DNA of 39,921 nucleotides from Basidiobolus ranarum (GCA_040143965.1 JASJQH010000040.1:1-39921); one strand, 5' to 3'. Shown: positions 3,381 to 39,798, counted from the stretch's first letter. Notes: a model not told the origin generated them from the letters alone. Numbers and translations: made by a program.

Positions 3381-3705
3381 TCAGTTAACATCTAAATGCA
3401 TGTATCCTCATATATACACTCTGATTCATTTTACTTATTCCATTGAATTCACTGCCTCTAATGTACAGCCGATCTATCAATAAAATAAATCAGAGCCACT
3501 ACCACACACGATACTGTACACCCGCACATACTGATAGATTTGCATGGATTTGGTTAGCAAGTAGTGGAAATCCAAATCCATTTTTTTAACGTGATTAAAT
3601 CCATTTTTTTGCCACATTCAATCTAATGATAAACCAGTGGAATTTTTTCCTATTAAAAGAGTTCTAATCATTGGGAATATCCCACCTTTACCCTACAAGT
3701 ATAAT

Positions 3706-5405
3706 ATGAACTTAGAAAATATCTCCTCCTTTTTTAAAGAACAAAAAGTCCAACTTTTACTAACAGCTGGAGTTAGTTCACTTATCACCGGTTTCTCTTT
3801 ATTAAAATTACAAAGAGTTCAAGCTGAGAAATTGTCCAAGAAACTTAAAGCTGAAGTAAAAGAAGATTATTTAGAATATAACGTAGAGGACTCCAACCTT
3901 ACAGAAGTTCCCTTATCCGAGGAAGATGACCGTTTATTAAACGAACAATTCTCAAGAAATATCGTATTTTTAGGGGAGGAGGGTATGAAAAAATTACGTA
4001 ATTCTTCGGTGGTTATCGTTGGTTGTGGAAGCATCGGTTCTTGGGTTGCACTGATGTTACTTCGTTCTGGTGTGGGAAAAGTGAGAATCATCGACCATGG
4101 TAAAGTCACTAGAGATACTATAAACCAACATGCTTTAGCTACTATCGAAGATATTGGTATACCCAACGCTATTGTCTTGAAGAAGCATATCAAAGAGATA
4201 GTTCCCCACGCCAAAGTTGAGTCTGTAATCGATACCTTCAATAAGGATACTGCTCCTTGGTTACTTGAAGGTAAGCTAATAACTGAAATGATTCGATTCA
4301 AATAACACTCAATTCAAATGTCGATATATTAGGGAATCCTGACTATGTACTGGATTGTGTTCAAAACCTCGAAACCAAACTTGAACTACTGAAATATTGC
4401 CATGATCAACAACTTCGGGTAATTTTCTTACTTTCCATGCAAAGGAATTATTTATTAAGAGAAAATCCTTCACATAATAGGTGATAAGTTCAGCATATGC
4501 TGGTGGGAAAGCGGATCCTTCCAGGATTCAAATATCGGATCTGAGCGATACTTACGGTTGGTCTTCTCTTTTGCACAAACCATCATAGTTGCATAGGCTA
4601 ACATATTTAGACGACCCATGGGTTCGCGTGCTTCGTAGAAAGCTTAGAAAACTCGGAGTAGAGAATAACATCAGCTTGATCCACTCCATCGAGAAACCAA
4701 CCGAACTAAAGCCAGGTAAGTAGCCAAACCTCAATCAAAAGGAACCATGATATTTACCACTGAATATTCACGATCTAGCTGAGTCTACTTCGAGTGAGGT
4801 TGACCAATATGCCATCCTCCCAGAAGGCCGAATCCCCACTTTGCCAACATTTGGTAAATATATAGAAGATATCATCGACAGTAAATATGATCTAAATTGT
4901 CTCCTCTTCAAAAGGTACCCTCTCTGCCATTTTCGGTATGAGTATGGCGTCTTGGGTTATCTGCGAGTTAGCTGAGCATAAAGTCCAACAGTTATTCATA
5001 AAGCAGAAAGAAAAAACATTCTCGAAACTCAAGAGAGATTTGACAGCTCGTGAAGAGAGGAATGGATTCAAGTAAGACCCCTAATTCTTATTGAAATTAT
5101 GCTCCAGAAGAGGCTAACATTTGATGTGTTTCAGCTCTTCGGTTACTCTTAGTAAATCAGAGGTCGGCTATATCCTTGAAGAATTATGGCGTAGTAGAAG
5201 TGCACTCTCAGGTGCTCTAGATAAATTGACGCTAACCCGTTGGGATCGCCGTCAGGCTCTAACAATAGATAATTGTATATGTCTTACCGTAGAAGAGGCT
5301 AATACTCACGATAACATATTAGGTAAAGTAGAAGACTATTACCCAGAGGAATTCGTCAATTTTGTGCAATCCCGTTTCTTGGAAGAATCTAGAATATCTG
5401 AATAA
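3706..5405 (+). CDS. TCD1/TCD2: tRNA threonylcarbamoyladenosine dehydratase-like (ThiF/E1-like family), 7 exons, degenerate ATP-binding motifs
   Basis: N-terminal TM anchor; EQFSRNIVFLGEEGMKKLRNSSVVIVGCGSIGSW...LLRSGVGKVRIID; spliced GNPDYVLDC and ADPSRIQISDLSDT; C-terminal VGYILEELWRSRS...LTRWD typical of fungal TCDs. All six introns are GT-AG (first 4271-4332). Confidence 0.85.
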
Positions 5406-6072: not shown

Positions 6073-9000
6073 TTAAAGCTTTTCCAGATTAAACCACTTG
6101 TCCACATTGGAAGGCTCTAGAAATTGAATCTGTATTCAAGTTAGATAGGAAAGTGGTGGAATTGAATGTTAAGATGCTTACTCCCATGTGGCTCGGTGCT
6201 AATTTCTCCTTAGTGGTAAGGATGATAAAGTGTCTACACTCTGCTTTTAGTAGACCTTGCAATTTGAGTAACATACCAAAGGTTTCGGTATGAGTATCGG
6301 TCTCGGTCGTAGATTCAGCCTAGAAGAAACTCATTAGTACTGTAGCTTTGAATTAACCAACATTTAAACATACTTCTTTTGAAACATCGGGTACAATACA
6401 CTTGATTCGCTCGGATTTGATCAAATCTTCAACAATCTGACAACTTTTGATTGCTCTATATTAGAAGAAACAGTTGGATTATGACTGGATTGAGGGCAAA
6501 GTATGATGGGAATTCGTACTTGGCATGATTATTCGCAGCCTCCTTCCGAAGAATAGACACTGTGGAGTCGGAGATTACTATTTTCCATGCTTCAGTATGG
6601 CGTTTCTGTAGCATATCAGTGAATAATTGAGGTTTTGAGAAGTTCATTGGATGCTCTATTTACCAGATCTTTGTACTCCATTAGTTTGTGCAGTACTCTG
6701 TCGTTTGTTAACAGCAATTCACTTGTTATCGCCACCACACCACCAGACGGGAAAAGGATGTTTGGCAGTGCTTGATCCTGTGGAATATTGACCGTGAACC
6801 CAAACACGATAAAGTTGAAGGCTTCACGTTGCTTTAGATCGTTGAGGTGGGGTATCATATGGATCTGACTCAGAGACGAGCGATGTATCTACACGAAAAG
6901 GTACAATGAGACATGTTTCGACTCAATATTGAATCAAGTATTGCAACGTACCAAGAGTGCTTTTGTATTGACATCATTCATTGTAGGGTCGAGAGAAATG
7001 CCCCGGTGTTTCAAAATGGCCTCCATTCCTAAGACTTCGGGATGGCGAGAAGGTCCGAACATAGAGACTTGACTACAGCTGTGATCCGTCTATAAATCAT
7101 TCAAGTTTAAATTGAGAGCATATAACCAATATCTTTTCTGGCAATGAATAAACCTTAATTTTCAGGATATTTTCCCAGGTTCGGACGAGCAGATTGCTGG
7201 GAGTTACTGGGTATTTCGAAGTAAACTCGATAGTTTCAGGCAGCCTAGAACAATCAAGTCTTAAGTTTAGTTCAAGAATCTCAAATGAATTCAGTGGAAA
7301 CACTATCTACAATTTATCGTAGTTCAATCCCTCTTTGGCGAGCTTATGATCGTTGATAAGTAAGAGGCACATACGGCCCAAGCTTTCCGATGGATTTCGC
7401 AGTAGCGTGAGCAAGTCGGAATTGACTGGAGATGCAACAATAGTCACATTTTCGTATGCGGTGATACCAACCTATGTAGCTGATAGTAAGCATACGAGAT
7501 CAGTACATGCGAAATAAAAAGGTTCGTACCAATCCCCCGCGAGCTAAGAAGCCAGTGAATTTATTATACTTCTCCTCGTTGATGCTTCTATCCGTAGGGT
7601 GAACATAGCAAATAGATAGGGTTTCATTCCCAATGGATTGCTCAACCAAAGACTTTATGTAAGAGAAACGGATCATTTTGGAGAAGCACAGCTTGCTTAT
7701 CTCTTTGCTATATCATCTGACTGTTAGTGGCCCGCGTCATATAGCTTGAATATAACAGTTGTAACATAGAAATTTACATAGTATCGAATAGCTTAATGTC
7801 TTGACCACCAATAGCTCCTATACGAACTAGCCCCATCTCCTTCATTTTACCCTTGTAAAGGCGGCAGATCCACTTTGGCATAATATCAGATTAGAAATAA
7901 GTCACACAATTGATTCCGAAAATACTTACATCAGTAGCTCGGATGTTATATGTGGGATGTTCTGAGTTGGGCTTTGGTAGATAAGTTGGCTTCTGGGCAA
8001 ATGATCGCGGTGGTCGCTCTTTCGGGTCAGTATAATCGAGGGTCCCAGATGATTCAGTATCACTATTAACAATAGGATTGCTGGATAGAATTGGATTTCT
8101 GCTGAATAAAGGAACTGATCCAAACATTGCTTCAGCTGTTGATTGCGGTGTAGGAACAGGAGTACCAGCCTCAGAATCGGTTCTGTTAACGGTAGGCGAG
8201 ATCAGTGTAGGCGCTTTTCGCGGGTCTGCGATATTCTTACTAATAATGGTGCTACGGTTATCGTGACTGACTGGATTCGAAACCAGCTCACGAGCTCGGT
8301 TTCTTGTAGGCGAATGATTAGATTCGCGAGTTCGATTTGCATTAGGTGGACGATTTGGTTCGTGATTTTGATTTATTTTTGGTGAACGATTTGGCGCCTG
8401 GGTTGCGTTCAACTTTGGTGGGTGGCTTGGCTCTTGGATTCGGTTTGCTTTTGGAGAACGATCTGGCTCACGCATAGGATTCATCTTTGGAGAGTAGTTT
8501 GATTCGCGAGCTGAGTCTCCTCTTGTTGCATGGGTTGCCCCATTAGTTTGATGTCTCTCAGGTGCAACTGGTGGCTTACGTATAGGCAAGCTCTCTGTGG
8601 TTGAACTAACTCTGGATGATTCCATTGGAGTTGCAATTGTTGTTTTACGAACCACCTCTTTCGGAGGGGAAGCTCTGATCTCCGGTTTTTTTGAAGTTGC
8701 TTCCACCTCTTTAGTCTGAGACGATACAGAATGATTTGGTATAATGGAAGGTAATACAGACTCTTTCTCGTAAGAGCGGGACGTGGAAGGGAGGTTTGTG
8801 CGAGTTTTCTTAAATCTTGGAAGCGATGCGTACTGACTATTTAACGATTGTATCAGGTTTTCTACCAAGAAAGTATATGTTAAGATACTGGGATTTGAAA
8901 AATTGCGTGTTCGACCACTAAATTACCTCGTGTGCGTAGCTGATTTTCCCATTCCTTTTCAGTCTCTGACTATGATGTGTTATAAAGTGGTTTTAAATTT

Positions 9001-9853
9001 TAAGTAACAAATGGAATAATTAATGTAGGGATTTACTCTTTGTATGGAAGCGTCATATCCGTGCTTTCGCTTATATCCTGGTAAAGGATCTACTCCTTTG
9101 GCTTTATCTGATTTAGTGGTTTCTAGAGTCTTCTTAAACTTGGCTACGGAAGAAAATCCCCCAGCACCCTGATCCATTATTCTTCGTGATTTCGAACGGG
9201 GAGTGGCCTAGGAATGATAAAAATGAAAGGTTCGTAAATACCAGACTGGGGCTTCGAGTAGAAAACCAACTACCTGAGGGTGAAAACTAGAGGATTTTTT
9301 GAGCGATTCAAATTGAACACTTTTGAGATTTGAACGGTCAAGGAAATCCAGTAAAAGGTCCGGACAGTTCAAATGATCTAGAGGTTCCCAGCTGGAATAT
9401 AGTTGAACACAAGTTAATTGAGAAACATGAATAAACCCTGATTTAAACTTACGTCAGCTCATCGTATCCACGCCATTTGATCAAGTACCACTCTTCTCCC
9501 TACGAAACCGAATATGTTCTATATATGTCTCCATTCCAAGAGATTTACCAAAACTGATCGTTTACCTTGACAATCTTCTGTTTCATAATGTCTTCTACCT
9601 CCCATTCGCTCACTTCCTCATCGTCGTCTTCCTCTTCATCGCTTTCCTCCTCTTCGACAACTTCGTCCTTTTCTTTCGCCTCTCTCTCATTTTCTTGCTT
9701 TACTTTTCCATTCCTGGTTAGTCGAGGAGTAATGATCTCTACTTCGAAGGTATTTCTCGGCTTACGTTCGGTTTCTTCGTTCATGTCTTCATCCCTTACG
9801 ATGAAATCGTGTAAACTATCTTCTGAAGATAGCTCTTCAAGCCAGTCACTCAT
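6073..9853 (-). CDS. Chromodomain protein with long disordered linker and C-terminal SPOC-DomII-PIN-like module (Chp1/TASOR-like), ~16 exons
   Basis: Spliced chromodomain WEVEDIMKQKIVK|GEEWYLIKWRGYDELT|WEPLDHLNCPDLLLDF. SPOC-like WICRLY...LCFSKMIRFSYI...KYNKFTGFLARGGL|VGIT...TIVASP. DomII-like LLIHRSSLSQIHMIPHLNDLK...LFPSGGVVAIT...WKIVI. PIN-like LLKLQGLLKAECRHFIILTTK...MG|IQFLEPSNVDKWF. All joins are GT-AG and in frame. Confidence 0.8.
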
Positions 9854-16063: not shown

Positions 16064-16985
16064 TTAGATATCAGTGAAGACTTGGGGCTCTTTGAATTCT
16101 TTGGCAATCTTGGCACCAGAGTCTTCAGAAGCGTCACCGTGAAGTTCCATCAATTTACCAACATCGAATTTGGGGGCCTTGAGGATCTTGACTTTGTGAA
16201 GGTAGACGTTTTGAAGAGGATAGATACCTTGGCAAGCCTTTTCAATCTCGCGACCAATAACCTCAGGAATGAACTTTTGAACCAAAGATTTCAAATCGCA
16301 AGTACTAGCTTCACGGGTCATAATTTCGAACATCTTCTTGCGAATTTGACGAATTTGAGCTGATTGAGCATAGGTGGTCTTCTTGAGTTGGTTGGGTCTT
16401 CTACGAGTGAAACCAATGGAGAAAAGACGAAGAAGGTAACCATCGGTGGTCTTAACATCAACATGAGCTTCGATGAGAGATTGCCATTTTTTGACAAGGG
16501 ATCTCAACTTATCCGATGTGAAAGTCATACCGTGGAAGTTGGTGAGGCAGTTTTTACCTTGGACTTCGTCAACTCTGAGGCGAATCTTACGGAAAGATTG
16601 CTCCTCATCCTTGTTCAAATCAGCAAGGGAAACTTCGAGAACGCGGCCCTTCAAGTAGTCAACAGCGTTCTTCAAACCTTGAGTACGGTTGACAAGGGTC
16701 TTGCCAACGTTACGGACCTCGAAGAGAGAAGGAGCCTTGATATCATACCAGTCCTTACGGGTGAAGGGATCGACACTAATAAGTTGAATACCTTAGGTTA
16801 GATGGATGGAACAGATTACAAATGATGATTATTAAAAAATGAACGTACATCTTCTTCTTCAAACCCTTCTTTCCTTTACTAAGACGTCTGCATAAAAAAG
16901 TTAGCAATCAAAGCAATGGTTATGACATCAAGCACCCAAGCAAATAAACAGAAACTTATACGTACTTGTTCTTTCCGACAGCCAT
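16064..16985 (-). CDS. RPS1: 40S ribosomal protein eS1 (S3a), 3 exons (introns 16888-16965, 16776-16848)
   Basis: [35 protein letters not shown]...[12 protein letters not shown]...CLTNFHGM, with strong codon bias. Confidence 0.97.
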
Positions 16986-22377: not shown

Positions 22378-25300
22378 TTAAGACCGTTTCTTGGTGTTAA
22401 TCCAAGATCCCAGGAGCTTCTCTACCAAGCTTTGCACGGTCTTGGAGTGACTAAGGTACAGCCCAACAAGCCAGAGTACGAAGCCATTTGTAATGTAATG
22501 CACTAGGTATGGGAATCGAACCCCATATATTAAAGTGACGACAACAATCATGTTGACAATATAACGAGTCCAATTGGATAACCTACACAAAGGCGTTCAA
22601 TATAATGGTAATTTGGTTAAACAACTGAATAGATGTTACCTCTCTGAGAAGCGTGGAAGCATCTTGTTGATGGTCATCTCTACGTAGACCATGATTGGAG
22701 CTATGGCAAAAAGGCTGTGGTCTGCTGGTGCTTGAGTAAACCAGTGAGCTGCCAAATTACGAATCCAGACAATCAATACTGGAATGTTGTATGGAAGCAA
22801 TGTAAACATCAACATTAGCATGCTAGACTGATAATGGTAACGATCCCAAAGAGCTTGAGAAGAATCTTTTCCCTTGTTCTAACAAATACCCGATCACTTT
22901 AGTGCGACGCATTCACATATATAATAGTGTATATCGGAAAGAAAGGTAGCTTACCGAAATTTTGGCTCGTAGCATGGTGCGTACACAGGAAAAGAGTTGA
23001 ACTAAGAAAGCACTACAATACGCAAACTGAAAAGGAACGAAGGTAGCAACCAATAGGAACAAGATCAAGGTGGTCACCACTCGGCGTCTTAGTCGCTTGG
23101 CATCCGACTCATTCGGCCTATAATATAATCGGGTGAGCTTATGCTATACAACATATCAACTACGATGTGAATTACCTGCTGATAAAGCCAGCTAGCCCTG
23201 GGATACGGTTCTCAATGAAACCAGACACTTCGGCAATAATGATGATAACCAACGTGACAAGCAACCATATGACTATTACAGTACCTACAGCCACCACTAG
23301 GAATATGGGGTTTAATAGCCACAAAATAGAACCTCTATCTCCAACAAGAATGCCACTGATATTGATAGGTAGATTTTCTAGGGAAAGAATAGAGGCACTT
23401 TGAAGCATTGGAAGAAATATCGATTGCACAACAGCCAAAGAAGAAATAAGAACCACGATTTTCCAGAGATGATTCCATATGAACAGCTTCAACGCATGAC
23501 CGAAAGTAGGGAACACGCCTAGTTAGATGAGAGAGTTAGCTTCATACAGGAACATAGTACATACGTCAATACATCCAATTCTAATTACCGTTCTTGTTCC
23601 AAAATGAAAATTGAATTTGGAATAATTTGATGATAATCAAGAAGGGGAAAGCTGCAAGAACCATATCACATCTCCTTGCTGTCCTTCCAAGACTACCGTA
23701 CCAGTCTAACCAAAACTCCACCTTATATTGGGTGTTTATCCTCGGGTCTATCCAGAATTGAAACTCCACCCCTTTCCATGCTGGGCGTACGAAAGGCTCC
23801 AATAGAGATGGCTGCATCATGGCAAAAGGGGTAGGTCCATGATAATTGACATTTACTTCACTGATGTTGTGCCAAAACTTCGATTCGTGCATAGGCGAGG
23901 AAGAGTATTGACGGACCATTGGTAGAAATAGGGCGGGTTGCGACGACTCTTGGTTGTCGAGTGGGGTGACAGACATACGATAGGCAAGGAGTGGGTTTTC
24001 TTCGATATCAATGTTAAGAGTGGTAAATAGTGACCTTCTTTTCGGAAAGGGTGAGACTTGGATTTTCTTAAACAACAAGTTAGAGAGAGTGAATTTAACA
24101 TCAAGTCTATTTTCTTCTGGGTTGTAAAATTCAGCAAACAGATAGTGATTGGAGCTCCAATATCCTTCGCGATTGTAACTTATTCCTACATATGAATAGG
24201 ACTGAAGCATATCTTCTTCCAGATTCAAGAACCATACGCGACCATTGGCTCCTTGGTTCGAATCTCCTGGAAGTGGAGCAGCGATATGGGAGACATCAGC
24301 GCAATCAATTGTTTCTTTTTGGCCGATTCTCTTACAAAGGACGAGATTAAAGAAGCCATGCTTTTCAGGCTTTTGATTGGTAAAAAGTGAAAAAGAAAAG
24401 TTGGCAGTTGATTGCTCAGGTATCGAATACAGATGAAACTTAGGGTAGGTTTTTGGCGTCTCTTGTCTTCCATTGAGTACAAGACGCTCATCAAAAGGAA
24501 CGATTTCATGTGATGTAGTATTGAGATCAATAGCGGAAAAAGAGTCTATGAACACGAATGCTAAGTTAAGTCCTGGATTGTGTATTATCATAGTTCAAAT
24601 GAGACTACTTACCACTAGTGTTATCAATCAACTGCTGAACCATATCTGTCTCCAACCCACTCAGTAAATTCCGTCTAAACTCAAATACTCTCTCAGATAT
24701 GAGCTTTGTTTGTCCGGGATGCTTGGCATCGACTACGGACAACAACGTCTTTGCAAGTGTACGGACAATTTCTGCACACCAAAGAATACATTGATGGTCC
24801 ATCGTGAGCCAAACGTCAGGGATAGTTGTAGTGAATACAGTGAATCCGTTGGAAGGAGGAACAATAGTACTAATGTCAGAAAAATCGGAAGAAATTATGG
24901 TATCATGGTTACCACCAGCTATAGATATCAAAGCCATGTTCTCAAAGGCACTGGAAGTAACATTAGTGGTGTATCCAGATTTCCAGTATTCGGTAATGCG
25001 GGCATAGAGATTTGTTCCAACCCGTTCAATAGGGGCTGGTGATGCCATGTGAGGCGTGGCTAGAGTTACAATGGTGTTGATAGAATCATTCAAGTAGTTA
25101 GGCAAGGTAATCAGTGTTCTAGCAACTACACCGCCCATTGAATGACCAATAATCAAGACAGATTTCGGTGTTGGGAACTGAGCGGTAGGGTATGTTGGAT
25201 AGGAGTTTCGCTGATTATACAAAGCAAGGATGTATTTAATGGCATCATTAACGTACTCGGCTTGTTCAAGCAGAGAATGCCCGTGGAGAGCAGAGAGTTC

Positions 25301-25942
25301 TTCATTAAAATCAACTAAAAATTCATCGCGTCTCGGTTAGGTTGTAGAACAGTTGGACGTCACAAATGTTGGAATAGTTACCGGAAAAAAAGTCCAAATT
25401 CAAAATGCCATTCTTTGCTGCGCCTTCTTGATGAGCTACCGTATCATAGTATAGCTCGGCAGCTCCTGAAGCAATAGAACGTACTTGCTTATAACTACCG
25501 GCATTTCCAGGAATGAATAGAACCGGAATTCCATTTGGCGGCTAAATTTTCCATTTAGCTGTCATCTTTAGAAGATTTTCAATAAGAAACCACTTACCGA
25601 ATTTGTTTGGTCATATCCATGTTCACGATAAAGATAAAGTTCATACTTCTTGGTATATTTTGTATGCAAATGATTGAAATCGTTCTGCTTCAAAAATACT
25701 GGACGCATGTAAGACATCTCACAGCCTTTGGGATCAAGCTGATGATTTAAAAAAGAGTCTAAAACAAACCCTAAGAATGCTAGTGTAGCTAGTGCTACTA
25801 ATATAACAGGCCATGATAAATTGAATATTCGGCGATTATTTAGCTCTAAAAGAGTCTTGGACGAGGAGGCTCTTTTATCTATCAATATATAGGGTTCAGG
25901 TTTTACTTTATCGCTTTTTCTCATTGTGTGGTTGTCCGCCAT
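22378..25942 (-). CDS. BST1: GPI inositol-deacylase (PGAP1/Bst1), multi-exon
   Basis: N-terminal [27 protein letters not shown], lipase motif [20 protein letters not shown], and multiple C-terminal TM helices. Confidence 0.93.
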
Positions 25943-30925: not shown

Positions 30926-32400
30926 ATGCTCTCCTCTATCCAAAAAGTCTCTTGTACCATTAACCCCCAGCGTCTTGCTCCCCTTGGAGTGGCAGCTCGT
31001 TCCTTTATCTCCACCTGGAGCAATGTCCCTATGGGTAGGTATTTTTTTGTTATGTTCCTGTCCACATCAGTGATCTCAAACTCTCAACTTCAGGACCTCC
31101 TGATGCCATTCTTGGAGTTACTGAAGCATTCAAAGCTGACAAAGATCCCAAAAAAATGAACCTTGGTGTTGGTGCCTATCGCGATGATAATGCCAAACCT
31201 TACGTTCTAAGCAGTGTCCGCAAGGTATTCTTCAACTTATTCCCCATTACCAATATAAAACTTGACAACTTAACAATATTTATATATCAGGCTGAAAAAA
31301 TCATCAGCGATGGACTTTTGGATAAAGAATACTTGGGAATTTTGGGACTTCCTACTTTTACCAATTTAGCTGCACAATTAGCTTATGGCACTGAACTTGA
31401 TGCTTTTCAGGAGAAGCGTGTACGCCTTTCAACTAAAATCATATCTTTAAAAGTAATTTATTTATTTTTGTCAAAATAGATTGCTGTTGCTCAATCCATC
31501 TCTGGTACTGGTGCTCTTCGTATTGGTGGAACTTTCTTGAAACGTTTCTATCCTCATTCTAAAACTATCTATATTCCCACTCCTACTTGGGGAAACCATA
31601 AGGCTATTTTCAATGATAGTGGACTTGAAGTTTCTCAGTATAGATACTACGATAAAAATACCATTGGTTTAGATATTAATGGCATGCTTGAAGATTTAAA
31701 GAATATCCCCGAAAAGTCCATTGTTCTTCTCCATGCTTGCGCCCACAATCCTACCGGTGTGGATCCCACCAAGGAGCAATGGAACCAAATATCCGACGTA
31801 ATTAAAGAGCGTGGTCACTTCTGTTTGTTTGATATGGCATACCAGGGCTTTGCATCAGGAAATACTGATGCTGATGCACATGCTCTTCGTAAGTTCGTTT
31901 CCGAGGGCCACAATGTAGCACTTTGCCAATCATTTGCAAAGAACATGGGTCTCTATGGAGAGCGTGCTGGTACCTTTTCCGTCATTTGTAATGATACAGA
32001 AGAACGCTCCAAAGTAGAATCACAATTGAAGATCTTGATTCGTCCAATGTATTCCAACCCACCCCTTACTGGTGCCAGAATTGTCAGCACTGTACTTGAG
32101 AACCCTGATCTCAAACAAGAATGGCTCGGTGAAGTCAAGATGATGGCTGATCGCATCATTGATATGAGAGTCTCTCTCAAGAAACATCTTCTTGAAGATT
32201 ACGGCTCCAAGAAAAACTGGAACCATATCACTGACCAAATTGGTATGTTCTGCTACACTGGTTTGACTCCTGAACAAGTTAGTCGCTTGACTAAGGAGTT
32301 CCACGTTTACCTTACCAAAGACGGGCGTATCTCTATGGCTGGTATCACAACCAAGAACGTTAAGCATTTGGCATATGCTATTCATGAGATTACCAAGTAA
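30926..32400 (+). CDS. GOT2: Mitochondrial aspartate aminotransferase, 4 exons (introns 31035-31093, 31225-31290, 31420-31479)
   Basis: Presequence, [59 protein letters not shown], and the PLP lysine in [12 protein letters not shown]. Confidence 0.96.
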
Positions 32401-33516: not shown

Positions 33517-33829
33517 TGTTGAAATTAACATAGCTTAAACATATATATGGTCATATATAGCTTAGTATTTAGTTATTCTACCTTTCACTAAGATATCTCC
33601 CACTATTCTCGAGGAATTTACTTCGAAGATTTTTCAAACTTGTCCTAGAAGCCCTTAACTTTACACACACGTTCCTGGGACCTTTCTTAACACATTCTAC
33701 ACGTTCTTTTGTCTACCTCTTGACAAATTTATAAATGTCAACTTTCTACTCAATAAATCAATAAGTGAAAACCACCAATTTTTCTGGTTCTCCAAGCCAC
33801 TTCTAACAAATTCCCAAAATACTTCAACA
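33517..33829 (+). mobile_element. Solo LTR-like element (~313 bp)
   Basis: Terminal inverted ends TGTTGAA...TTCAACA, internal TATAAAT (33730) and AATAAA (33752), and homology to three other segments in the window. No target-site duplication was found (TTAAG vs TAGTA). Confidence 0.7.
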
Positions 33830-35869
33830 TAGTAATGATATGATAAATGTAGGTAAGAAGTATCGTAGTTAGAGAAAGAATCGTTATTCTCCCTAGTAAA
33901 CAGTAGAGCTTGTAGAAACATATGATCCATTTGATATATCTCGAAAATGTAAAAAATGGGATATTTTTTCTCGAATAAGGAAAAAGGATGTAAGGCATGT
34001 GGTGCTTTGACCAGATGGCAATATTATGTCTTTTTCCAAATATAAGAAATATGTGGCTCAGAAAATATCTTAAGATAAATGACTAAGTTTTGAGGACATG
34101 TTGAAGATGAGGTGTAGTATTGCAATATTACTATACTCCTGATTCTAAAACGTTGACATGTATATTCTGATCTAAAACTTCCAATGAAACCATTACTAAT
34201 AGCACAGGTTTGACATCCATCTTCGCTAGAATAAACTATGAGCTAGGCACATTACTCTTCACAAAAAAGTAACTCCATCATTGTGACTCTCTTGCTATTT
34301 TACAAGTAGATGCAATGTGTTACAAATAAAGTTAATAAATAGTCTAAAAGAGGATTGACAGGGATCAGGACAAATGTCACCTGCATCCTCTGCCCTGTAG
34401 TATCATAGGGGCCCAATATATCAAGTAAAATGGTTTTGAATGAGCCAGCATAATGAGAAAATTAGAAGTCTAAGATATATAATTAGATTCCAATCATCAT
34501 GCATATATTACTAGTAGAATATGTATCAGACAGCATACGATATTCCAATAATAGTTACTTGTTCTCAAAATACTCCGCTATATTCTGATTGTTTATCCAA
34601 AATCCGATCGTATTTCAGTCTCAACTGGGTCATTTAGAACACTTGGTAGAATCTTTCTTTCTAAGTTTGTTTAATGAAGTGAATTCCGCCGGTTCAGTAT
34701 GATGTAATTGAGAAACCGATGTGTAGTTAAAGATATCTCAAAAGGTTCTAGAGACTTGAATATCCGTCCAAATACAGCCCTTCAATTATGGAGTCAGCCA
34801 TGTGTTCTACGCCTGACATATGTCAGCAGAGATGAAACATGGTTTATACTGCCCCGTCAGGGATGATGAGCAGCTATACCTATGGCGAATACCATTAACT
34901 GCCCTTATCCTTAGGCACTACGTACCCTGCTTTGGCTGTCCTGTATACTGGAACATCCCCCACAACAATAATGTACGAGTCTCTTGCTACAATTCTACTC
35001 TGCATGCCCAGAATATCTTGTGACATGGCAAGGGTATTAATAGCAAATGTATATATATACTGACTTCTGATTTGTTAGATCATTAAGCTTATCTTTACAT
35101 CGATACCAGATTATTTTTTCAGCAACCAGCTATGGTACGCCCTTCTATTTGGTGCACAGTTTCAGAAGGGCAGTTTGATTCGTGGATCGAAAAAGGTTAA
35201 TAAATGATTAATCGATAATGATACACGAAACAACCAATAAGGATACTCGCCTTCCAATGATCAGAACAAAGATGTTGTATTCATTACAAAATCCCCTAAC
35301 CCTACATTGTGTACATGCAATGGCGGTTAGCTCAAATCTGCATCAGTGCCTGCAAGTAGTATACTAAAGTATGTATACATACAAGCCCCTGAATGGGAAT
35401 GCAAACAGTCCTACGCTGCATGTAAATGTTACGCTCATAACCTGAGCCTAGCCTAATTGGCCTGTAACAATTGTTGCCTTTAGCAGTAACAATGTCGGGA
35501 AATAGATTTACTCAGAGTGTGACGCGAACAGCGCGACGTTTGGCGTATTCAAGAATTTGCACAGATATCGCGCCAGGTCTGCCTAATCCAACTAGATTGC
35601 CATGAATAGATAAAGCCTAGATTGGAAGCTTGGTGTTTGCATGAACCTGTTTATATTATTATCGATGTTTCCTTTCAGTGGGCTTCCAAATTAGGGAGGG
35701 TAATTTATTGGTGTCATATGGATTGTTGGTATGAATTCAATATATTGATATAATGTTTCAATGCTGCAACCAACTACAATTATCCGAGGTTGGTTGAAAT
35801 CGGTGAGATATATAACGGTCCCCTCATCCACTCCATTTTTTATCATCATTCATCTGAGTTAATTCCAAG

Positions 35870-37354
35870 ATGCCTATCCCTACTCCTGATATCGAGATTC
35901 TTCGCCAACGTTTAGTTGCTGCCGGACAAGAGCACCTTCTTGATTTCTTTGAAGAGCTCTCCCCATTGGAACAAAGCGGCCTTATCGGTCAACTCAATGC
36001 TCTTGACGTGCATCGTGTAAATCGTATTTTTAAAAAAGCCACCAGCGGCTCTGAATCTTCTCACCAAGATTCAGCCTCGATCGAACCACTTCCTGAAGAT
36101 TGCTTTGAATCTGCTTTGAACTGCAGCCCCTCAAAGATTCAGGAATGGGAAGATTTGGGTTTGAAGATGATCGCTGAGGGTAAGGTAGCTGTCATCCTTA
36201 TGGCCGGTGGCCAAGGCACTCGTCTTGGTTCTTCTCTCCCCAAGGGTTGTTATGATATTGGCCTTCCATCCAAGAAGGGCTTATTCCAACTTCAAGCAGA
36301 GCGTATTAGTCGTTTACAACAAATTGCTCAAGAGCGTCATGACAACAACAAAAAGGTGGTTATTCCCTGGTACGTCATGACTTCCGGTCCTACCAGACAA
36401 GCTACCGAGGAACATTTCAAATCTCAAAACTACTTCGGATTGGAGGAAAATAATGTCTTCTTCTTTAACCAAGGTACTCTTCCATGCATGACTAATGATG
36501 GTAAGATCATGCTTGAAAAGAAGGGTCAACTTGCCGTAGCTCCCGATGGCAATGGTGGAATTTACGCCGCTCTTCGTCAAGAAGGTGTTCTAACCGATTT
36601 GGCTAACCGTGGTGTTGAATTCATCCACTCATACTGCGTTGACAACTGCCTTGTCCACGTTGCTGATCCAGTTTTCATTGGTTATTGTGTTTCCAAGAAT
36701 GCCGATTGTGCTGTGAAGACAGTTCCTAAGAGTAGCCCACAAGAACCTGTAGGTGTGGTTTGTCTTCGTAACAAGAAGTTCGGTGTTGTTGAATACAGTG
36801 AAATCAACGAAGAGATTGCTAACCGTACTCGCAGTGATGGAAAACTTGCCTTTGGTGCTGCCAACATTGCCAATCATTTCTACACACTTGATTTTCTTAA
36901 CAGTGTAATTTCGTTTGAGGACAATCTTGAATATCACATCGCTAGAAAGAAGATTAAGCATGTTGACCACACCCTTGGTGAAATCGTTGTTCCTACCAAA
37001 CCCAATGGTCTCAAGTTGGAGTTGTTTGTCTTTGATGTGTTCCCTTTCACCAAGCGTTTGGCTGTATTCGAAGTTGATCGCAAGGAGGAGTTTTCCCCAC
37101 TTAAGAATGCCCCTGGCACTGGAATTGATTGCCCTGAGACCAGTCGACGTGATATTATTGCCCAACAAATTCGATTCATTGAGAATGCTGGTGGTAAGGT
37201 TGATCTTCGTGGAGAATCTCCCGAGACTGCCATGTTTGAAATCTCACCACTTCTGTCCTACGCTGGTGAAGGTTTAGAATACTTTGAAGGTAAAACCATC
37301 ACCGCACCCGCCATCTTCCAAACCGTTGAAGATGTTGAGAAATACTTTGGTTAA
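35870..37354 (+). CDS. UAP1: UDP-N-acetylglucosamine pyrophosphorylase, intronless
   Basis: LMAGGQGTRLGSSLPKG, PWYVMTS, APDGNGG, YCVDNCL, VVEYSE, KLELFVFDVF, EFSPLKN, EISPLLSYAGEGL. Confidence 0.97.
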   Translation: MPIPTPDIEILRQRLVAAGQEHLLDFFEELSPLEQSGLIGQLNALDVHRVNRIFKKATSGSESSHQDSASIEPLPEDCFESALNCSPSKIQEWEDLGLKMIAEGKVAVILMAGGQGTRLGSSLPKGCYDIGLPSKKGLFQLQAERISRLQQIAQERHDNNKKVVIPWYVMTSGPTRQATEEHFKSQNYFGLEENNVFFFNQGTLPCMTNDGKIMLEKKGQLAVAPDGNGGIYAALRQEGVLTDLANRGVEFIHSYCVDNCLVHVADPVFIGYCVSKNADCAVKTVPKSSPQEPVGVVCLRNKKFGVVEYSEINEEIANRTRSDGKLAFGAANIANHFYTLDFLNSVISFEDNLEYHIARKKIKHVDHTLGEIVVPTKPNGLKLELFVFDVFPFTKRLAVFEVDRKEEFSPLKNAPGTGIDCPETSRRDIIAQQIRFIENAGGKVDLRGESPETAMFEISPLLSYAGEGLEYFEGKTITAPAIFQTVEDVEKYFG

Positions 37355-39539: not shown

Positions 39540-39790
39540 GTTGAAATTAGCATTGTCTAAATACCTATATAGTCATACATAACTTAGTATTTAGTTATCC
39601 TATATTGAACTAAGATATCCCGAATTATTCAATATCAGAATTTACTTAGAAGTTTGAAAGTATATAGACTTTGATAACTTGTGTTGGAAGACCCAAACTT
39701 TGCACACATGTTCCTGGGACCTTCCTTAACATACTCTACCTGTTAGCTTATTAACATCTTGACAAAACTATAAATGTCAACTGAATACTC
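39540..39790 (+). mobile_element. LTR-like copy, 3'-truncated
   Basis: Colinear with 33518-33751 and the reverse complement of 1-190. Confidence 0.75.
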
Positions 39791-39798
39791 GATATATC

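Follow-up and report, generated by a model that had tools for sequence, protein, structure and literature searches.

A candidate Chp1-type chromodomain-SPOC-DomII-PIN protein in the early-diverging fungus Basidiobolus ranarum

Analysis of a 39,921-nucleotide (nt) stretch of DNA from Basidiobolus ranarum (GCA_040143965.1, JASJQH010000040.1:1-39921; the whole stretch is referred to here as the window) showed a minus-strand gene at positions 6073 to 9853 that probably encodes a chromatin reader and scaffold of the Chp1 type. As the first-pass annotation of the window had surmised, the host is an early-diverging fungus; it belongs to the phylum Basidiobolomycota. The product of the gene is one polypeptide in which an HP1-like chromodomain, its aromatic cage complete, is followed by a linker of ∼400 residues and a C-terminal SPOC-DomII-PIN module. 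By fold and by profile, the module as modeled is homologous to the Tas3-binding core of Schizosaccharomyces pombe Chp1.

Two known systems serve as points of comparison. In fission yeast, the Chp1 chromodomain binds methylated histone H3 lysine 9 (H3K9me), and Tas3 bridges Chp1 to Argonaute in the complex for RNA-induced transcriptional silencing (RITS) (Douse et al.; 2025 HUSH review; PMC5391189). The C-terminal part of Chp1, residues 504 to 960 (SPOC, DomII, and PIN), binds Tas3 residues 9 to 83 and is needed for silencing, and an RNA recognition motif (RRM) lies between the chromodomain and SPOC (PMC5391189). TASOR, of the human silencing hub (HUSH), shares SPOC, DomII, and PIN with Chp1 and is set apart from it by a DUF3715 pseudo-PARP domain (Douse et al.). 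For TASOR, the chromodomain is supplied by MPP8, and Periphilin is the Tas3-like partner (Douse et al.; 2025 HUSH review; PMC5391189).

Gene model and exon structure

On the minus strand between 9853 and 6073, the open reading frame (ORF) fragments lie in different frames. The gene model was tested by an exact-match search of the window's own annotated protein, K7432_001690 (P0001; 949 amino acids [aa]), against the minus strand, onto which it threads without a mismatch in 16 exons. These are located at 9853-9566, 9499-9453, 9391-9274, 9207-9037, 8969-8927, and 8861-7930 (exons 1 to 6), at 7872-7778, 7707-7530, 7471-7311, 7244-7154, 7089-6952, and 6888-6664 (exons 7 to 12), and at 6605-6520, 6455-6374, 6319-6182, and 6129-6073 (exons 13 to 16). 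The coding sequence (6073..9853, minus strand) amounts to 2850 nt, that is, 949 codons and a stop, with the ATG at 9853-9851 and the stop codon at 6075-6073. All 15 introns are GT...AG introns of 52 to 70 nt. Splicing of the raw sequence by hand, before the annotated protein was known, had given identical junctions at every exon worked through, the weak GTAGAT donor at 7310 among them. The first-pass annotation had joined the same fragments, through in-frame GT-AG junctions and over the same coordinates, into one protein of ∼950 aa, and this reconstruction was borne out. The 10 sequence strings that it quoted are all present in the protein: WEVE at residue 84, KWRGY at 104, LCFSKMIRFSYI at 571, KYNKFTGFLARGGLVGI at 611, TIVASP at 634, LLIHRSS...DLK at 753, LFPSGGVVAIT at 799, WKIVI at 836, LLKLQ...TTK at 902, and GIQFL at 931.

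The protein is named in the database only as "hypothetical protein K7432_001690 [Basidiobolus ranarum]," and Pfam scans of its single exons gave no significant match. When the 75-residue exon at 6664-6888 was used as the query, two proteins were returned, P0001 itself (100% identical) and P0002 (79% identical). The latter is the ortholog from B. meristosporus, a protein of 910 aa that is collinear over its full length and contains both the chromodomain and the C-terminal module. The predicted placement of the two in a single gene is based on this pair of gene predictions, together with the conservation seen over all of the junctions. At the level of annotation, the chromodomain and C-terminal exons belong to one protein in two Basidiobolus species, as had been proposed.

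A gene model artifact, in which automatic annotation merged two adjacent genes, one with the chromodomain exons and the other with the SPOC-DomII-PIN exons, is most improbable. Such a merger would fit with two weak splice donors, GTAGAT at 7310 (its 66-nt intron takes out an in-frame TAG) and GTTTAT at 7153, and with the fact that both supporting proteins are predictions. However, the frame is unbroken through all 16 exons, the introns are uniform in length and in their GT-AG borders, and the 932-nt exon 6, which physically continues the region behind the chromodomain, ends 57 nt short of the first SPOC exon. Furthermore, the same fusion was independently predicted in B. meristosporus, with sequence conservation running over each of the junctions.

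The C-terminal module and its relation to Chp1 and TASOR

Residues 523 to 949 (427 aa) were modeled with AlphaFold2 (AF2) from an 11-sequence alignment and with no templates, which gave a mean predicted local distance difference test (pLDDT) score of 73.3. Three domains were distinguished in the model. The first is a SPOC beta-barrel (residues ∼532 to 672; 7328..7935, minus strand; from the end of exon 6 to exon 9), assigned from the AF2 model by VIA-align and Foldseek. The second is an alpha/beta DomII (residues ∼713 to 802; 6745..7077, minus strand), assigned by alignment of a submodel to Chp1, with the family signature ...LLIHRSSLSQIHMIPHLNDLK...FIVFG, whose H and P do not vary in any of the 11 sequences aligned. 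The third is a PIN-like domain (residues 803 to 949; 6076..6744, minus strand), assigned by VIA-align to PIN structures and containing FPSGGVVAIT..., WKIVIS..., ...CRHFIILTT..., and the C-terminal GIQFLEPSNVDKWFNLEKL.

Among 350,542 chains of the Protein Data Bank (PDB), the top Foldseek match of the model was the Chp1-Tas3 core, 3TIX (chain 3TIX_B; E=2.5e-17, 456 columns), and the match spans all three domains in the same order. The C terminus had been described in the first-pass annotation as SPOC followed by DomII and PIN, and the fold comparison upheld that description. The next matches were the SPOC domains of FPA, SPOCD1, PHF3, SHARP, and RBM15 (E=4.8e-6 to 6.5e-4), followed by the SMG6 PIN domain (E=3e-3). 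With VIA-align, the whole module was aligned to 3TIX_D over 380 residues with a Z of 17.4. The global template modeling (TM) score of the whole model against 3TIX was 0.44, a value that we attribute to a different pose of the domains relative to one another. The parts were also aligned on their own. The SPOC part (model residues 1 to 149) was aligned to known SPOC domains with a root mean square deviation (rmsd) of 2.0 to 3.2 Å over 120 to 140 residues, the best being FPA (Z=16.2; rmsd, 2.0 Å; 120 residues), followed by SHARP (15.7), PHF3 (15.4), SPOCD1 (14.5), and RBM15 (13.5). When folded alone, the DomII-PIN submodel (residues 708 to 949) reached a pLDDT of 81.8 and a predicted TM score (pTM) of 0.78, and it matched 3TIX with a Foldseek E of 4.2e-12, a TM score of 0.72 to 0.75, and an rmsd of 4.4 Å. 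VIA-align placed 228 of its 242 residues on residues 688 to 958 of Chp1 (3TIX_D) as one unit, with a Z of 20.0 and an rmsd of 3.2 Å. This is 7 Z units above the next match, that of the PIN part only to SMG6 PIN (Z=13.0), after which came SMG5 (12.0), Rrp44 (11.8), and Nmd4 (11.5). The identity to Chp1 in the structural alignments was ∼14 to 15%.

Homology of the modeled C terminus to the Chp1 core is thus a matter of structure and intermediate sequences, not of direct sequence similarity. A profile built from the 11 sequences matched Chp1 3TIX_B with an E of 1.5e-14 (57 bits; chain residues 97 to 453) and found no other credible match. The relatives were collected by a phmmer search of 1.84 billion representatives, with the C-terminal 427 aa as the query, which gave 11 proteins at E≤1e-3. 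The ortholog from B. meristosporus was found at E=7e-173. Outside Basidiobolus, the nearest relatives by sequence (E=3.8e-11 to 2.8e-4) are proteins of Glomeromycota, Endogonales, and a chytrid. Those of the Glomeromycota come from Geosiphon (P0004, E=3.8e-11; P0005, E=4e-9), Racocetra (P0006, E=1.1e-6), and Acaulospora (P0011, E=2.8e-4), and the others come from Jimgerdemannia of the Endogonales (P0008, E=5.1e-6) and the chytrid Spizellomyces (P0009, E=2e-5). Further matches came from the amoebozoan Paradermamoeba (P0007, E=2e-6) and from metagenomes (P0010, E=7.1e-5; P0012, E=7.7e-4). One match, P0003 from Grus japonensis (E=1.1e-20 over 16 stretches), was left out of every alignment and count. 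This protein is made up of ∼62-residue tandem repeats, and its score is attributed to summing of the matches of the repeat units to query residues 190 to 231. A second hypothetical protein of G. japonensis, P0013, is built of the ∼62-residue tandem repeat as well.

The six relatives from Glomeromycota, Endogonales, and the chytrid have in common with the B. ranarum protein the motifs VLIHR..QI..IP.L..LK, FP.GGIV..T, W.I.IH, and RHF. They differ from it in showing only 18 to 25% identity and no detectable chromodomain, and they are annotated only as hypothetical. Some of the relatives are recognized by Pfam families that bear the name of Chp1. A good example of this is P0005, which passes Chp1-like_PIN at 34.4 bits against a cutoff of 27; weak matches to Chp1_domII were found in P0004, P0005, and P0006, and P0009 has a near-threshold SPOC match (23.5 versus 25 bits). 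Others are recognized as TASOR-type: P0010 lies above the cutoffs of both PIN_TASOR (63.1 bits) and TASOR_alpha-beta (28.2 bits), and P0007 has a TASOR-type match of 26.8 bits, just below the cutoff. This means that the relatives are split between Chp1-type and TASOR-type Pfam models of DomII and PIN, in keeping with the earlier suggestion that the protein bridges the fission yeast and animal families. The Chp1/TASOR superfamily is sparse and fast evolving, and it is present also in Glomeromycota, Endogonales, a chytrid, and an amoebozoan; with metagenome sequences added, such a spread indicates that the family is old and widespread. In the ESM Atlas, the nearest cluster was an unnamed family of 714 aa with 95 members, mostly from Basidiomycota (score, 0.85; TM score, 0.52 over 292 residues). 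It is a lead only, and it hints at Chp1-like modules in Basidiomycota too.

It is quite improbable that the protein is a fungal TASOR ortholog with a fused MPP8-like chromodomain, which would act independently of RNA interference (RNAi) by sensing transcripts and recruiting an H3K9 methyltransferase. Some similarities do point toward TASOR. SPOC, DomII, and PIN are shared with it, and the protein has a chromodomain reader, which HUSH obtains through MPP8. Its DomII exon weakly matches TASOR_alpha-beta (PF23314; 12.3 to 12.5 bits versus a cutoff of 27, E=0.17 to 0.19; PF24630 was not listed), its relative P0010 passes the TASOR DomII and PIN models, and in hhalign the Basidiobolus pair reached a probability of 97.8% (E=9e-13, 170 columns) against P0007 and P0010, the two sequences of TASOR type. 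A TASOR cluster also stood at rank 5 in the ESM Atlas (score, 0.77), again as a lead only. However, the similarity to the Chp1-type Glomeromycota group is stronger, with an hhalign probability of 99.3% (E=1.2e-20) across 393 columns that take in each of the three domains. The DUF3715 pseudo-PARP (PF12509) was not found in either Basidiobolus protein at E≤1, and the chromodomain shares one chain with the module instead of being supplied by a partner. SPOC directly precedes DomII-PIN, as in Chp1, whereas in TASOR the two are ∼600 to 700 residues apart with DomI between them. In addition, TASOR-like proteins are described across Metazoa in the available part of PMC10578480. The lack of a pseudo-PARP and the adjoining SPOC argue for the label Chp1-like over that of TASOR ortholog. 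Of the two identities first suggested, MPP8+TASOR-like or Chp1-like, the second is therefore retained on the ground that SPOC adjoins DomII-PIN, and the TASOR identity falls with the absence of DUF3715 at this threshold.

The PIN-like domain is probably not a nuclease, judging from its residues at the expected active site. PIN strand 1 ends in a column that, by motif analogy, would correspond to the first catalytic Asp; the B. ranarum protein has Thr in this column, and an Asp is found there in only 1 of the 11 aligned sequences (P0010). Other acidic PIN positions are likewise not conserved among the aligned sequences, and the missing acidic residues suggest a noncatalytic domain. The sequence with the Asp, a 275-aa protein from a JGI metagenome with TASOR-type DomII and PIN, has the motif VVMDSNAL, which resembles the catalytic motif of active PIN nucleases.

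The chromodomain, the linker, and the origin of the domain arrangement

The N-terminal part consists of an acidic tail (residues 1 to 82; 9608..9853, minus strand; 46% identical to the B. meristosporus protein), in which a run of E and D lies just ahead of the chromodomain, and the chromodomain itself (residues 84 to 131; 9334..9604, minus strand), which is split over exons 1 to 3. The chromodomain matches Pfam PF00385 at 38.2 bits against a cutoff of 25.1 (E=1.3e-9). In the alignment to CBX1, W84, W104, and Y107 fall on the three aromatic-cage positions, which we take to be Y21, W42, and F45 of CBX1. These values agree with the first-pass reading of a chromodomain with an intact cage, and the acidic N terminus and the disordered-type linker of ∼400 aa that it described were found as well. 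The linker (residues 136 to 531; 7936..9321, minus strand), delimited by composition and by identity to the B. meristosporus protein, is low in complexity, rich in S, P, T, R, and K, and only 17 to 21% hydrophobic. It includes a degenerate 12-residue tandem repeat of ∼5.5 units, [SP]PKxNxxxExxx (residues 346 to 414; 8287..8493, minus strand), which was read by eye; a similar 12-residue repeat run is present in the B. meristosporus linker. Between the two species, the linker is 41 to 64% identical depending on the region, with 39 gapped positions, whereas residues 83 to 135, with the chromodomain, are 92% identical. The difference between 92% and the 41% of the linker indicates that the chromodomain is under strong constraint.

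In its overall plan, the protein is like S. pombe Chp1. Both have an N-terminal H3K9me-type chromodomain, a long spacer, and then SPOC, DomII, and PIN, and they are of nearly the same size (949 aa versus 960 aa for Chp1, as implied by residues 504 to 960). HP1/Swi6 proteins offer another comparison, in that the chromodomain is nearest to those of CBX1 and CBX5 and is preceded by an acidic run. Unlike in HP1/Swi6, the C terminus is SPOC-DomII-PIN and not a chromoshadow domain; none was found, and the sole PF01393 signal (E=0.17, residues 86 to 128) falls on the chromodomain itself.

Several observations weigh against the assignment of the protein to the Chp1 type. First, direct sequence comparisons fall short. 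The protein compared with 3TIX_B gave an E of 0.14, which is not significant, and a profile of the two Basidiobolus sequences found no Chp1 match in the PDB at E≤10. It reached only 12.5 to 14.3 bits on Chp1-like_PIN (PF21484; E=0.041 at 14.3 bits), for which the cutoff is 27, and no match was listed for Chp1_domII (PF23340) or Chp1-like_SPOC (PF22380). Its score on TASOR_alpha-beta (12.3 to 12.5 bits) is just as low. Second, the chromodomain is far nearer to those of HP1/CBX than to those of Chp1 or MPP8. Against PDB sequences, its top matches were of the HP1/CBX1/CBX5 kind (E=6.7e-11 to 6e-9); it matched CBX1 at E=6.7e-11, CBX5 at E=6.3e-10, and Drosophila HP1 at E=2.4e-7, compared to 4.5e-5 to 1e-4 for MPP8 and 0.005 to 0.013 for S. 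pombe Chp1. In addition, 2 residues are missing from the loop that follows its third cage residue. Third, no Pfam domain at E≤1 and no RRM were found in linker residues 136 to 531, where Chp1 has an RRM between chromodomain and SPOC, and there is no GW/WG motif in the protein. Finally, the neighboring ORFs are housekeeping genes (ThiF type, ribosomal protein S3Ae, PGAP1, aminotransferase, and UDP-glucose pyrophosphorylase), and the locus therefore gives no functional hint. To these differences from Chp1 can be added that of lineage, Basidiobolomycota compared to Taphrinomycotina.

Some of these observations would also be expected if an ancient SPOC-DomII-PIN protein without a chromodomain, like those found in Glomeromycota and chytrids, had gained one of the HP1 type in the Basidiobolus lineage. 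The likeness to Chp1 would then be convergent, no link to RNAi would be required, and the role of the protein might be to hold some complex, for RNA processing or another task, on heterochromatin. We regard such an independent fusion as possible but rather unlikely. The HP1/CBX character of the chromodomain and the lack of an RRM are in its favor, and so is the record of the relatives. In whole-protein Pfam scans, no Chromo family was matched by any of the four whose N-terminal sequence is available (P0004, P0005, P0009, and P0011), and the N termini of P0004 and P0011 gave nothing relevant in Pfam at E≤10 and only chance matches by phmmer against the PDB (barstar and designer pentatricopeptide [PPR] repeats). 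The chromodomain probabilities from hhalign were ≤0.3%. However, absence from fast-evolving N termini is weak evidence, and the comparison covered only four full-length relatives. The hydrophobic spacing at residues ∼30 to 80 of P0004 and P0011 looks chromo-like by eye, in stretches without the cage aromatics. Inheritance is the simplest account of the domain order that S. pombe and Basidiobolus have in common. A maximum-likelihood tree of the DomII-PIN region was calculated from 10 rows, with P0012 (which has no PIN) and P0003 excluded and with no Chp1 or TASOR reference among the rows. It left 4 of its 7 inner branches open, as an independent fusion would allow, and joined long branches, and it is uninformative as to affinity with the Chp1 type or the TASOR type.

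With the protein taken as Chp1-type, a mode of action can be sketched by analogy with the two known systems. The chromodomain would anchor the protein on H3K9-methylated nucleosomes, and the SPOC-DomII-PIN module, held on a flexible tether of ∼400 residues, would serve as a noncatalytic docking platform for an adaptor or effector. This partner might be of the Tas3/GW type and form a bridge to Argonaute, on the model of RITS, or it might be an RNA-binding protein of the Periphilin type, on the model of HUSH. In this way, silencing activity might be held and reinforced at heterochromatic repeats and transposons.

Genomic surroundings and significance

The genes around the locus were identified by family matches. 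They comprise ORF fragments of a ThiF-family enzyme (3595-4305, plus strand), ribosomal protein S3Ae (16064-16792, minus strand), PGAP1 (two fragments, 24605-25336 and 23581-24594, minus strand), and a class I/II aminotransferase (31480-32400, plus strand) and an ORF for UDP-glucose pyrophosphorylase (35858-37354; PF01704, E=3.6e-53). On the whole, the region is gene dense and unremarkable. No match to reverse transcriptase or integrase families was found in the 10 ORFs scanned out of the 14 in the window of at least 150 aa. The only long direct repeats in the window, at 33518-33759 and 39540-39798, are 77 to 79% identical and lie ∼6.0 kb apart. They consist of two pairs of adjacent repeats (91 and 133 nt) and flank the UDP-glucose pyrophosphorylase ORF instead of a retroelement. 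Solo long terminal repeats (LTRs) or copies of some dispersed repeat are possible identities for them; apart from these repeats, the LTR family mentioned in the first-pass annotation was not found.

In the available part of a published fungal survey, the RITS-specific subunits Chp1 and Tas3 are reported to be missing outside fission yeast, and the available part of a second survey reports both to be absent from four Mucor species (PMC12863538, 2026). The inference drawn in both surveys is that, in early-diverging fungi, any link between RNAi and heterochromatin would have to be made by new components. A review of SPOC domains does not mention Chp1 (0 occurrences). A literature search, limited to the available text of the sources and with survey figures and supplements outside its range, yielded no account of a protein of the Chp1/TASOR type from early-diverging fungi. 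What is new here is a deeply divergent Chp1-type member in Basidiobolomycota, which contradicts the published call of absence. The Chp1/TASOR family is too divergent for routine homology searches, as can be seen from the 11 matches among 1.84 billion representatives, and the relatives found here provide stepping stones at the sequence level between the Chp1 and TASOR families.

A more far-reaching reading, which we put forward tentatively and hold to be doubtful, is that the common ancestor of fungi and animals or even, given the amoebozoan relative, that of Amorphea already possessed a reader and scaffold with chromodomain, SPOC, DomII, and PIN on a single chain. Basidiobolus and fission yeast would have kept the ancestral form, animals would have split MPP8 from TASOR, and in most other fungi the chromodomain or the entire gene would have decayed or disappeared. 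The first-pass annotation had gone as far as to propose an ancestral complex, and this part of it found little backing in the 10-sequence tree, in the HP1/CBX-like chromodomain, or in the relatives, in none of which (0 of 4) a chromodomain was detected. If the ancestral reading is true, RITS and HUSH would be two descendants of one ancient heterochromatin-coupled machine for transposon silencing, and the nature of the original effector could be approached through Basidiobolus as a third, independent lineage. The finding makes several questions testable: whether Chp1-type tethering is peculiar to fission yeast, in what way RITS and HUSH are related, and what partner the SPOC-DomII-PIN module has outside yeast and animals.

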